64,000 nucleotides of DNA, taken from positions 744,001 to 808,000 of the forward strand of contig ML996700.1 in NCBI GenBank assembly GCA_010356995.1, read 5' to 3'. Below the pieces are notes generated by a model, which saw only the letters and a program-made list of their open reading frames with translations, had not been told where the DNA came from and ran no database searches. Position numbers and translations under genes: made by a program. The stretch comes from Trichodelitschia bisporula. Taxonomy: Eukaryota. Below, in pieces: positions 29,158 through 34,322 of this stretch (position 1 is its first letter; each line of letters starts with the position of its first letter).

Positions 29158-29676
29158 TTACGCGAACGGCGGCCTCCTCATGAACGGCATATTATGCCCT
29201 GGCAAAAAGTGCCCCGGGAAAGGCGCCATATTCCTCAGCTGAAACCAATCCCCTTCCTCACAGCGAAACGCAAGCGGGTGCATATATCGATCCGCATCTT
29301 TCAGCGGCCACTTCGCATCCGACCACGTCCACCGCTGCGGCGCGCGGTACCTCCTCGTCAGGAAATCGTACTGTTCATTTGGATCCCTTTTCGCCCACGG
29401 CATCGGATCATTCGTGTTATCGAACAAAAACGGGTCCATCAGTGCGCGGTTCGTCCATCGTCCACGTGTTGGCCGATCACCGTGCGTTGAGATGAAGATG
29501 TCAGGTCCGCGGCCTTGGAGCAGGTCTTTCGCGCGGCCTAGGCGGGAGGTGCGCTTGCCATCGCGCGGCCAGACGAAGCGTGGGCGGGGCTTTTGGCGTA
29601 CTGAGTCCCAGGGAGCGTCATTTTCGTACTTGTGGGGCAGGGTGCCGTCGGGGAGGAAGACGGGGACGTATTCCAT
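29158..29676 (-). CDS. Hypothetical protein, 172 aa, W/R/P-rich
   Basis: Uninterrupted ATG ORF with coding-like composition; no recognised domain. Confidence 0.6.
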   Translation of the reverse strand: MEYVPVFLPDGTLPHKYENDAPWDSVRQKPRPRFVWPRDGKRTSRLGRAKDLLQGRGPDIFISTHGDRPTRGRWTNRALMDPFLFDNTNDPMPWAKRDPNEQYDFLTRRYRAPQRWTWSDAKWPLKDADRYMHPLAFRCEEGDWFQLRNMAPFPGHFLPGHNMPFMRRPPFA

Positions 29677-30074
29677 CGTTTGGATTGTGTGCTCCGGTTG
29701 GCTGTGTGAATCTTAGATGGTGGGGGCTTAAATCAGACTTATAGCTTGGAAGCCTGGATGTTTGATCATTGACGGAACAAACGGGGGGCATCTGTGCTGG
29801 CAGGCGGGCGAGGTTTTGTCTCAGCAAACATGTTGGGTGAGAAAGGTTATTCGTAGTTTGGGTGGTGTACGATCGCTGTATTGGTTAGGTCCTGATGATA
29901 TGAACACCAGACGACAGCGTAATAATTGATCCAAAGTTTGACCTAGCAAGCGGTAAACGTGCGGTAGGGCAGTGAAGTTGAGCAACGCTTGTCAAGCTTG
30001 AGCGTGCGCTATCAATACATCTATTTTATGTACACCCGCAGCTCCAGCATCCGTCATCCTCGCAAACGGGGCGT

Positions 30075-30483
30075 CTACAACTTGCTAATGAACAGGCGGG
30101 CAGCCATGACGCGCACACGCTGCGGCAGCAGGTACTTGGAGAAGAGGTAGATGAGCGCCGGCAGGCAGATGAAGGCAACGGTCGCCTCGTTGACGAAGTA
30201 GAAGGGAACGAGCTGCGGCATACCGGCGGCGAGGACTGTCTGGGAGTATTATCAGCTTATGTTCGATGACGGCGCTCCTATATGGGCCGAGCCGGGAGAG
30301 ACAAACCAGCTTCGGGAAAGCCGCGGGCTTGGCATCCTCCTTCGCCACGCGGGCCGACGTCAATTGAGCAGACGCCGATTGCGCAACTGTCTTGGTGCTG
30401 AGGAAGGCGGCCGGGCGCGCAGTCAGCTGCGGCTGGCGGGCGAGGGCGCGCGCGAGCGGGCGGAAGAGACGGGCGGAGGACAT
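30075..30483 (-). CDS. ATP8: Nuclear-encoded mitochondrial ATP synthase subunit 8 with N-terminal presequence; exons 30307-30483 and 30075-30239
   Basis: Removing the 67-nt phase-0 intron GTTTGT..GCTGAT..CCCAG (30240-30306) gives 113 aa: a 65-aa Arg/Ala/Ser-rich leader plus MPQLVPFYFVNEATVAFICLPALIYLFSKYLLPQRVRVMAARLFISKL (48 aa), matching the termini and length of fungal Atp8. Confidence 0.93.
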
Positions 30484-30890
30484 GGCGGGTCTGGAGTAGG
30501 AGCAAGCGGTAGGTTAGCTTCGAGACGGGTTGCCAGGGTGTTTGATGGGGGTGGATTGGGGGCAAACTGACGAATTGCACTGTCGGCGACCAATGCGGAT
30601 GGCGGGATGCGGATGGTGATGGTGGTGGACGACGGTAATGGTGATGGAGGTGTGCGGTCGTTGTCGTCCGGAACGCAAATCGCTCCCGACGCCAAGGCTA
30701 GTCTGCATCCGATGTTTCCCCGAGAAGCGCGGATGGTCCGTGCGGGCTTTTGTTGCTGGTCCATTGGTTTCGTTTGCTTTTAGCTTTGGCGATGTTTGGT
30801 AGTTGACCTTGACTGCCTACAGGACTGTCCAGCACGCGCAACTTCGCCCTTACATCTCCACCACCCATAGCCAAATCCCATTCCACTGTC

Positions 30891-33800
30891 ATGTCGCTCT
30901 TCGGCAATCAAGGAACGAGCGGTCTGTTCGGCGCTCCTGCTGCATCCAGCGCGCCGCAAACGAACTCCTTGTTTGGTAACACAACCGCGCAACAGACCCA
31001 ACCAGCACAACAGCAGCAATCCCAACCGCAGCAATCACAAGGCAGTCTCTTCGGCGCTGCTCCCAAACCAACCCTCTCCCTCGGCGTGCCGAACCTGGCT
31101 TCTTCGACTGCTGCTACTCAGCAAGGCGGCCTCTTCGCCAACGCGACTGCGGGACCCGCGGCTCCTACGCTAGGCGGCTTTTCTCTGAATCAACAACAAC
31201 CGCAGGCGTCTGCTCCAGGGATGGCAGGTGCGCTAGGGATGGGAGGTGCTCCGGGGATGACAGGGCTTGGGGGCTCGCTGTTTGCGTCTACTGCGGCGCC
31301 GCCGCTGATGCAGCAGCAGCAGCAGCAGCAGCAGCAGCCCGATGCTCAAGCTCAGTCGACAACGACGCGTCCCACGCTGCAGTCGGCGTACTTTGACCAG
31401 ATCCTCGAGCGCGGACGTAAGCGCAATGCTGCCGCTGGTGCGTTGCCGGACGTGCCTGGGCTCCAACTCGGACTGGGTGACATTGCGCGCAAAGCTCGGA
31501 ACCTGGGAGCGGCTGACGCGCCGAAAGCGGGAGATACCAAGGCGTGAGTTTACGAGTCTGGTTCACGGACGCGGCTAACGGGTGCAGACACTACCTCCTC
31601 GCAGCATCGGGTGTTTCCACAGCTGCGGCGCTGCGCGATCTCAATGCCTTCAGTGCCCAGGCCGGCGCAGCTGCCGTTCCCGTTGCCTCGGGCGGCTTCT
31701 CCGACACCGACATTGAGAGCTTCGTGTCCAATATCCAGGCTCAATCGACGCTGGACATGATCCAGGAGGGACTCGAGCAGTCCAAGCGCGACTTTGACAC
31801 CTTCCTCGAGGACAACGTGCAGATGAACTGGGACGCGCAGCGGCGGCGCATCTACGAGCACTTCGGCCTGGCGAAACCGAGCGAGCAGGAGCAGGAGAGC
31901 GCCGGAGGTGCTGATCCTACTGATCGCGGCGCATTCGGGCGCTCTGCTCGCCGCAGCAAGATTGGGGGATCTACAATGGCGTTCGGCCAGAGCGGGCTGA
32001 ATAAGTCTATCCTGGGCAACTCTAGTGCGCGCGCTACTTTCCGGGCCAGCTCGTTTGAAGGTGCGGAAAAGACGCAGATGACGCTGCCGCCGGTGGAGGA
32101 TCGCTTCCAGCGCGACAAGCAGGAGCGGTATGCAGCGACGGTCAAGGATCTCAACGCGTGTCGCAACCGTGAACTGTGCTATCCGGTTATCCACAAGTTC
32201 GCCGAAGTCGAGGAGCAAGCGGGTCTGGATAATACGGCGTCGCTGATCAGCGCGTACCAGGCGTTGGCATCTATCACGGGCGAGCCGAACGAGATCGTGC
32301 AGTCGTTTGAAGCGAGGGCAGCCAAGGAGCGCAAGTTTGCGGCGGATTACCTGGACGAGAACTCCAATTCGAGGAAGTCCATTGAGCTGCGGAAGCGAAT
32401 TATCGATGGGTCACGGCGGTGCTTGGAGAAGATGTGTGTGCATTTTCCAATGGTGATAATGGAGCTGACTCTCTAGATTTCTCAAAAAGATTGAGGATAC
32501 CATAGCCAAAGACCCCAAGGTCGCCAACCTCGGTGGTATTCCTTCCCCAGTCAACAAGATCCGCGCCTACATCCGCGTCCTCTCCAGCCGCAAGGAACTC
32601 GCGGCATCAGACAATATCAATCTGCAGTCAATCACAGAGGGCAGCAACGAAGACTACTGCTGGGTGATTCTCTACTTCATGCTGCGGGCCGGCCTCGTCA
32701 AGGAAGCCGCGCAGTACGTCGCCGACAACATAAAGGCCATCCGCACCATCGACCGTAAATTTTGCCAGTACATAGAGCGGTATGCCGCCGACGAGGATCG
32801 CCGCTTGCCGCAGGACATGCGCCAGAGCATCAACAGTGAGTACAGCCAGAGGACCAAGATCGCGGCCGAAGACACGTTCGACCCGTACCGCATGGCCTGC
32901 TACAAGCTCGTCGGCCGCTGCGAGCTGTCACGCCGCGCGCTGGACAATATCCGCACCGACGAGGACGACTGGATGTGGCTGCAGTTCGCGCTTGCGCGGG
33001 AAGTCAACCGTGCCGAGGAGGCAGCTGGTGAGGTGTTTGGTCTCGAACAGATTCGGGAGATGGTTGCGGAGATCGGGCGTCGCCTCTTTGCCCCTGGGTC
33101 GGAGAATTCTCCTGGTGGTTTAGGCTTGCTCTTCTTCCTCCAGATCCTGTCCGGCATGTTCGAGCAAGCTGTTGCGACGCTCTATCCCACGAATCACGTG
33201 GCGGCTGTTCACTTCGCCATCGCGCTCGCGTACTATGGCTTGCTGCGCGTCGCGGATCTCAGCGCCACCGATCTACTCAGCTTTAACACCCGCCAGCAGC
33301 CGCGCATTCATTTCGCCCTGATGGTCGGTTACTACACTGGCGACTTCCGCGTCGCCCAGCCCGACGCTGCTGCCGACTACCTGATCCTGCTGTGTCTGAA
33401 CGCGGACCTGCCCGGTGAAGCCGGCGTCCAGCAAGCGAAGCTCTGCCACGAAGGCCTGCGCGAGCTCGTTCTCGAAACCCGCGAATTCGCCCAGCTCCTC
33501 GGCGACGTGCGCGCCGACGGCGCGCGCCTGCCCGGCGCCATCGAGACGCGCCTGAAGCTCATCCGTATTCCCGGCGCCGCCGCCACCGACACCCAGCAAT
33601 TCGTGCACACGCTCACCGTGCAAGCCGCCGCCGCCGCAGACGATAACGGGCGCACCACCGACGCTGTGCTCCTCTACCATCTCGCCAACGAATACGACCG
33701 CGTCATCAGCATCATAAACCGTACGCTGTCTGAGGCGCTGACGACCGAACTTGGGCATGAGCCTATGCACCTCGAGCCGCTGAAGCCCCGTGCTGCACTT

Positions 33801-34322
33801 GCGGCTAACAGCACGCTGTCGCTGACGGCCGTGTCGGACCCCGCGCAACTGGCACGTAACATGACGGATCTGTACCAGCGCGACGCGCTCGTGTACACGC
33901 AGATCCGGCCCGTGGCGCGGGATGCGTGCGTGCTGCTGCTGCGGCTGTGGGAGCTGCGCGGGATGGTCGAACGTCAACAATGGCAGGCGGCGCTGGAGAA
34001 CGTCGAGGCGCTGGGACTACTACCGCTCAACGCGCGCGGGAATGTCGGCGCCATCCGCGCGACGGCGGCGAACTTCGATGAGCTCCCCGAGCCTGTGGCA
34101 AGGGTTATTGGCGATGTGCTCATGTGGACTATTGTGGCGTGTGGGCAACAGAGGGAGGCGCTGAGGAGTGAGGGGTGGAATGATCGGGGGCGGAAGGAGG
34201 CGGCGATGGGGTTGGAGCAGGGTGCGAGGGATTTGATGATTTATGCGGGGCTTATAAGGTTTAAGTTGCCGCCGAGGGTGATGGAGGTTATTGCGAGGGT
34301 TGGGGGGGATGTTGGCGTTTAG
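30891..34322 (+). CDS. NIC96: Nucleoporin Nic96/Nup93 with LFG/Q-rich N-terminal region, 2 introns
   Basis: LQLGLGDI, KA|HYLLAASGV, SKRDFDTFLEDNVQMNW, W.ILYFMLRAG, DPYRMACYKLVGRC, EDDWMWLQF, LRELVLETREFAQLLGD; introns at ~31544-31587 and ~32434-32476. Confidence 0.92.
31311..31337 (+). repeat. (CAG)9 polyglutamine tract in NIC96
   Basis: Direct read; encodes Q9. Confidence 0.9.

Follow-up and report, generated by a model that had tools for sequence, protein, structure and literature searches.

A spliced nuclear gene of Trichodelitschia bisporula that very probably encodes subunit 8 of the mitochondrial ATP synthase

A 64,000-nt stretch of Trichodelitschia bisporula DNA (hereafter the window) carries a gene on its minus strand that very probably encodes subunit 8 (Atp8/A6L) of the mitochondrial F1Fo ATP synthase and is the orthologue of the nuclear atp8 of Pleosporales. 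As an earlier note on this DNA had proposed, it is a functional transferred gene rather than a NUMT: its intron is absent from contigs of sequencing runs, its codon usage is nuclear, its leader resembles a presequence, leader and intron recur in relatives, and dN/dS lies below 1 in 8/8 comparisons.

The gene consists of three exons, one in the 5'UTR and two coding, which are separated by two GT..AG introns (Table 1). Translation starts at an ATG at 30483..30481 and ends at a TAG at 30077..30075. Coding exon 1 (30483..30307; 177 nt, 59 codons) ends in phase 0 and contributes 59 aa, and the coding part of exon 2 (30239..30078) adds 54 aa. The spliced product is a 113-aa precursor composed of a 65-aa leader (59 + 6) and the 48-aa Atp8 part, with the 3' end of the 67-nt intron lying six codons upstream of the Atp8 Met. 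The earlier note had removed 30240-30306 and fused a 65-aa leader to a 48-aa peptide; its coordinates and peptide proved exact throughout, on the minus strand. The 5'UTR intron, a feature absent from that note, has its 3' end 7 nt upstream of the atp8 ATG and was seen in only one contig, from run X2.

Table 1. Features of the atp8 locus (positions within the window).
Feature	Position	Strand	Remarks
Presumed shared divergent promoter	30626..30795	.	Gap between atp8 contig end 30625 and NIC96 contig start 30796
5'UTR exon	30572..30625	-	X2 contig piece joined to 30490; true transcript start may be further upstream
5'UTR intron, 81 nt	30491..30571	-	GTCAGT 5' end, GCTAAC branch site, CAG 3' end
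Exon, 7 nt 5'UTR + coding exon 1	30307..30490	-	Most of the presequence encoded here
Spliceosomal intron, 67 nt, phase 0	30306..30240	-	GTTTGT 5' end, CTGAT branch-like site, CAG 3' end
Coding exon 2	30075..30239	-	Last 6 leader residues (TVLAAG), 48-aa Atp8, TAG stop
Atp8 domain, 48 aa, MPQLVPFYF...RLFISKL	30078..30221	-	One membrane helix with Pro21

Of the words sampled from 29950-30600, two thirds are present in two public runs, X1 and X2, which come from one sample and one study. The kind of these runs is off record, and their label 'RNA?' is a guess. When their contigs were placed on 29700-31000, one contig in each run joined 30239 to 30307 and showed no other difference from the window. 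The skipped stretch is exactly 67 nt long and has CT..AC ends on the plus strand, i.e., GT..AG on the gene strand. The X2 contig contains a second joint, 30490 to 30572, again with CT..AC ends on the plus strand, and reaches 30625. Since the contigs carry two precise GT..AG deletions and both stretches are kept in the genome assembly, the simplest reading is that the contigs represent cDNA. The splice evidence, which comes from a single sample and study and consists of assembled contigs rather than raw reads, agrees with the junction proposed at 30240/30306, as the 67 nt missing from the contigs of both runs are exactly those that were predicted.

The 48-aa part matches Pfam PF05933 (Fun_ATP-synt_8) with 72.9 bits (E 2.4e-20; curated cut-off 26.1 bits) over the whole profile (1-48 of 48), in agreement with the family assignment made in the earlier note. 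The match to yeast Atp8 as present in solved ATP synthase structures (e.g., chain 6b2z_A) has an E value of 1.5e-11, residues 1-48 aligning to 1-48. The predicted protein has a single hydrophobic stretch, whose best 17-residue Kyte-Doolittle window scores 1.84 (a measure of hydropathy only), followed by a basic C-terminal tail, PQRVRVMAARLFISKL. Profile, structure match, and helix with basic tail all assign it to the fungal ATP synthase protein 8 family, the match being far above chance. The likeness to the mitochondrial yeast protein (6b2z chain A) extends over 48 residues end to end and includes the MPQLVPFYF N-terminus and the RLFISKL C-terminus, whereas the T. bisporula gene differs in being nuclear, in having a leader, introns and GC-rich codons, and in encoding a less hydrophobic helix with a proline. 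The precursor is identical to the 113-aa NCBI 'hypothetical protein EJ06DRAFT_532269' (P0004) of T. bisporula (Phaeotrichales, Dothideomycetes), which UniRef names ATP synthase protein 8, and the public gene model already has the 67-nt intron.

The predicted leader has the make-up of a matrix-targeting presequence. Its 65 residues include 10 R+K, 2 D+E and 17 Ala, the first acidic residue stands at position 49, and the strongest amphipathic stretch, residues 4-14, reaches a hydrophobic moment of 0.94. Exon 1 alone matched no Pfam family. The T. bisporula precursor has no Arg at -2 or -3 of Met66, and Arg45 would give an R-2 site; in the alignment described below, several relatives carry an Arg or Lys three residues ahead of the Atp8 Met. 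Regarding the origin of the leader, 1.84 billion representatives were scanned with the full precursor, and none of the 126 matches was to the leader alone. One match only, P0085, has its best stretch starting in the leader; this protein (2081 aa, 14 stretches) was rejected as repetitive and rich in Ala/Gly.

Base composition, neighbouring genes and the spliceosomal intron place the gene in the nucleus. The mature part has a GC3 of 0.90 and exon 1 one of 0.83, vs 0.62-0.77 in three stretches of the adjacent NIC96 gene, so the codons are GC-rich like those of the nuclear neighbours, as had been claimed. Nowhere in the 64-kb window does the GC content of a 1-kb segment fall below 48.5%, and MPQLVPF occurs once. 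For comparison, we sorted 80 metagenomic atp8 loci into two types by DNA composition: 72 mitochondrial-type loci have a locus GC of 0.21-0.33 and a GC3 of 0.06-0.27, whereas eight nuclear-type loci have a locus GC of 0.46-0.62 and a GC3 of 0.69-0.94.

The head-to-head arrangement with NIC96 given in the earlier note is correct, Pfam Nic96 matching 32469-34319 (+) with 612.9 bits. The NIC96 ATG lies at 30888 (+), 404 bp from the atp8 ATG, and an FG-repeat N-terminus is found there as a weak match. NIC96 (30888-34322, +) is spread across three or more reading frames (30888-31544, 31517-32473 and 32469-34319) and hence contains introns. The interval between the atp8 and NIC96 contigs is presumed to be a divergent promoter shared by the two genes (Table 1). 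The eight nuclear-type loci, several with only a short upstream sequence, gave no tblastn match to three NIC96 pieces; this is evidence neither for nor against conserved synteny.

Word-based searches yielded nine longer relatives for exon 2 and 26 for the full precursor. Those with names are from Venturia, Verruconis, Lepidopterella, Mytilinidion and Lophium, from Ampelomyces and Amniculicola (Pleosporales), from Aplosporella, Lasiodiplodia and Phyllosticta (Botryosphaeriales), from Tothia, Eremomyces, Rhizodiscina and Aulographum, and from two Trypetheliales MAGs and one MAG labelled Pyrenula. A word-based search with the 48-aa part gave a further 42 matches that bear no organism labels and cannot be assigned to nucleus or mitochondrion; they were left out of the counts, and 27 of them carry a JGI name, either 'F-type H+-transporting ATPase subunit 8' or 'hypothetical protein'.

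An alignment of 21 precursors (T. bisporula and 20 others from several Dothideomycete orders) revealed a consensus MSSxRLxRPLARAxQR at the start of the leader, which is reduced in the two Trypetheliales rows. The alignment has 24 invariant columns, 23 of them within the Atp8 part, where the two ends, MPQL.PF at the N-terminus and ARLFISKL at the C-terminus, show little or no variation. This conservation, like the full-length agreement with both the Pfam profile and yeast Atp8, speaks against an imported protein that acts in another role, as a small inner-membrane protein outside the ATP synthase, with subunit 8 supplied otherwise; for relatives without a mitochondrial atp8, no other supply of subunit 8 is known, and we consider such a role very improbable compared with that of subunit 8 itself.

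The intron position is common to 8/8 nuclear-type metagenome loci, the AG lying 18 nt ahead of the MPQL ATG in seven of them and 21 nt ahead in L005, and in all eight the 3' exon begins at a T/H-x-L codon, as in T. bisporula. In a quick maximum-likelihood tree (48 columns, 100 rows), the nuclear-type rows, i.e., 18 named nuclear proteins, the eight loci and a protein from Vermiconidia, fall on one side of a branch with an SH-aLRT of 97. A 48-column tree alone is weak support. Leader, intron position and clade membership all point to orthology of the T. bisporula gene with the nuclear copies of other orders. Together, the shared leader, the shared intron position and the tree speak for a single old atp8 transfer in Dothideomycetes, which fits these sequences best, and for another transfer in Pezizales.

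The Pezizales case is Ascodesmis nigricans, in which a 2.97-Mb contig encodes a 105-aa Atp8 precursor (P0190). This precursor has an unrelated leader and sits on a long branch outside the Dothideomycete clade; it is probably the product of an independent transfer.

Using the Nei-Gojobori method, we compared the 48 Atp8 codons with those of each of the eight nuclear-type loci, with which the T. bisporula protein shares 32-39 of 48 aa, and obtained dN/dS values of 0.08-0.31, which are rough since dS is unreliable in short, GC3-biased genes. All eight comparisons indicate constraint, i.e., purifying selection on the Atp8 codons. The ratio is below 1 in every pair. The idea of a NUMT or dead processed copy, a remnant of mitochondrial DNA that is open by chance and has no function, can draw only on the fact that atp8 is normally mitochondrial, and it has to contend with a GC3 of 0.90 vs 0.06-0.27 in mitochondrial-type loci, an in-frame spliceosomal intron that is removed in contigs, a frame intact over 113 codons, a leader and intron position kept across orders, and dN/dS values of 0.08-0.31 in 8/8 pairs. 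Its three expectations, mitochondrial-like composition, a lack of nuclear features and neutral decay, are contradicted by GC3, by two introns and the leader, and by dN/dS, respectively. We therefore rejected it as next to impossible and treat the gene as a functional nuclear copy.

The membrane helix of the nuclear forms is softened. Because these forms make up one clade, the contrast effectively represents one evolutionary event and p-values for it are overstated: the Kyte-Doolittle mean over residues 12-30 is 1.10 in nuclear-type loci (sd 0.10, n=8) vs 1.71 in mitochondrial-type loci (sd 0.14, n=72), with non-overlapping ranges (0.96-1.27 vs 1.38-1.99). At 1.32, T. bisporula Atp8 lies between the two ranges. 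A proline occurs within residues 12-30 in 7/8 nuclear-type loci vs 1/72 mitochondrial-type loci. A cruder earlier classing, which relied on the make-up of the upstream residues, set aside 31 of 106 proteins as ambiguous or lacking the start motif and was replaced by DNA composition, pointed in the same direction (proline in 18/19 nuclear vs 2/75 mito-like proteins). Low helix hydrophobicity fits the hydrophobicity explanation for the rarity of such gene moves, as far as it is set out in the accessible text of a 2024 review (PMC10809612). According to the same text, atp8 is rarely transferred but natural transfers exist, with fewer than six across eukaryotes.

From these features a route for the protein can be proposed. 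What is known of mitochondrial import and of allotopic ATP8 in yeast suggests that the precursor would be made in the cytosol. Its positively charged amphipathic N-terminus (residues 4-14) would steer it via TOM and TIM23 into the matrix, where the long leader would be cut off, possibly in two steps. The single helix would then be inserted from the matrix side in an Oxa1-type manner with its N-terminus out. The N-terminus of yeast Atp8 lies in the intermembrane space, so that a simple stop-transfer would give the wrong orientation. After insertion, Atp8 would take its place in the complex, where the peripheral stalk and subunit a would be its neighbours. In the nuclear forms, the reduced hydrophobicity and the conserved proline plausibly prevent arrest of the helix during import.

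A nuclear atp8 with a presequence is not new. Franco et al. (2017; PMC5626475) reported that Stemphylium lycopersici has no mitochondrial atp8 and atp9 and instead carries nuclear homologues with TargetP-predicted N-terminal extensions, and described the same mitochondrial losses in three other Pleosporales. Both genes are reported to have moved to the nucleus in Shiraia-like species as well (2025; PMC11881002), and atp8 is recorded as missing from further Pleosporales mitogenomes (PMC7225605; PMC8956966). In Botryosphaeriales, the mitogenomes of Macrophomina and Phyllosticta yuccae contain atp6 and atp9 and no atp8, and the accessible text of the two papers leaves a nuclear copy uncommented (PMC8451660; PMC10815617). 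These accounts of Pleosporales (PMC5626475, PMC8956966, PMC7225605) and Botryosphaeriales (PMC8451660, PMC10815617) match the statement in the earlier note that atp8 is missing from several Dothideomycete mitogenomes.

The closest described system is the nuclear atp8 of Pleosporales (S. lycopersici TW65_04673), which by its published description, as far as accessible, is likewise a nuclear Atp8 gene behind a predicted targeting extension, but in a host of Pleosporales rather than, as here, Phaeotrichales. Two other Pleosporales proteins, from Ampelomyces (P0017) and Amniculicola (P0023), have the start of the leader and the clade in common with T. bisporula Atp8; their aligned leaders are about 51-54 aa long vs 65 aa in T. 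bisporula. The accessible text of the Pleosporales papers (PMC5626475, PMC11881002) mentions neither an intron, nor expression of the nuclear copy, nor hydrophobicity. In the open-access literature, as far as its text was accessible, we found no paper on this gene in Trichodelitschia and no mention of an intron at a conserved position, of a helix with lowered hydrophobicity and a proline, or of a nuclear copy in Mycosphaerellales, and none of the Trichodelitschia papers listed (20 of 21) names atp8 or a mitochondrial genome in its title or the start of its abstract. As the gene is an orthologue of a published nuclear atp8, first reported for Pleosporales in 2017, and its T. bisporula protein is already annotated in NCBI and UniRef, novelty is modest and the value of the present analysis lies in comparative detail, not discovery.

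Nuclear atp9 of Podospora and Neurospora (PMC3420929) offers a parallel, again judged from accessible text, being a relocated small hydrophobic Fo subunit with a presequence of ~65 aa that has served as an allotopic model; it differs in encoding another subunit, with two helices, that forms an oligomeric ring. Engineered allotopic ATP8 is the other parallel: yeast ATP8 is reported to be functional from the nucleus given a targeting sequence and recoding (PMC3420929), and in yeast and human cells cytosol-made Atp8 with a targeting sequence is described as restoring ATP synthase (PMC3420929; PMC10809612). These are laboratory constructs with borrowed leaders, whereas the T. bisporula gene is natural and has its own leader and sequence changes in the helix.

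The published view, as stated in the accessible text, is that mitochondrial atp8 was lost after the split of the two Dothideomycete subclasses. The Atp8 of Vermiconidia calcicola (Mycosphaerellales, subclass Dothideomycetidae) falls inside the nuclear-type clade and thereby hints at an older transfer or at coexisting nuclear and mitochondrial copies. The V. calcicola protein (P0076/P0187) is 116 aa long and is named 'ATP synthase F0 subunit 8'; its helix contains the proline, and the contigs that encode it measure 197-452 kb.

Coexistence might also apply to T. bisporula itself: beside an intact mitochondrial atp8, the functional nuclear gene would then be a second copy, either redundant or with an expression pattern of its own, and the transfer would be incomplete. 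Nuclear and mitochondrial copies of atp9 are known in some filamentous fungi. The V. calcicola copy makes coexistence plausible somewhere in the class, since other Mycosphaerellales, namely Zymoseptoria and Zasmidium, reportedly keep mitochondrial atp8 (PMC5626475). For T. bisporula we nevertheless regard it as unlikely: every relative with a nuclear copy whose mitogenome is described in accessible text, in Pleosporales and Botryosphaeriales, lacks atp8 there, and the dN/dS of 0.08-0.31 together with the GC3 of 0.90 suits a sole, well-expressed copy.

We tentatively combine the observations into a broader scenario, possible rather than probable, in which the atp8 transfer would be older and more instructive than the accessible literature has it. 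A single relocation, with the leader on its own exon, may have predated the split of the two Dothideomycete subclasses, since a member of this nuclear family is also present in a fungus of Mycosphaerellales; both copies, the nuclear and the mitochondrial one, may then have existed side by side and been lost differentially, and the helix proline and lowered hydrophobicity may be adaptations that enabled import. If so, the gene family would offer a ready-made natural blueprint for expressing ATP8 allotopically, and a dated case on which the hydrophobicity hypothesis of organelle gene retention could be tested. Each natural move of a gene for a membrane subunit shows what import requires, and the same question underlies the nuclear expression of mitochondrial genes as therapy. 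The T. bisporula copy is a clean expressed example: its long leader has an exon to itself, its intron is conserved and its helix is softened.

Several relatives deserve separate comment. The MAG protein P0031, labelled Pyrenula ochraceoflavens (Eurotiomycetes), has the Dothideomycete leader and groups with Trypetheliales (SH-aLRT 97); its label or binning may be wrong. P0070, an unnamed 178-aa protein, consists of three head-to-tail 48-aa Atp8 units with 17-aa linkers and could reflect a repeated gene or an assembly artefact. Compared with P0017, P0071 carries 19 additional residues in frame, from an initial V to a final Q, exactly at the T-x-L boundary. Likewise, P0010 differs from P0009 exactly at this boundary, its upstream part being unrelated and ending in Q. 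Both gene calls look like read-through of the same intron.

The contig that carries atp8 extends 2246 letters past 29700; a contig that spans several genes is no proof of a single transcript. The atp8-carrying run contigs extend across the region of an ORF at 29161-29673 on the minus strand, which has no Pfam match and lies directly downstream of atp8 on the same strand. A homologue of this ORF with 41% identity also adjoins atp8 in two metagenome loci (L006:684-1184 and L007:859-1113), there on the opposite strand.
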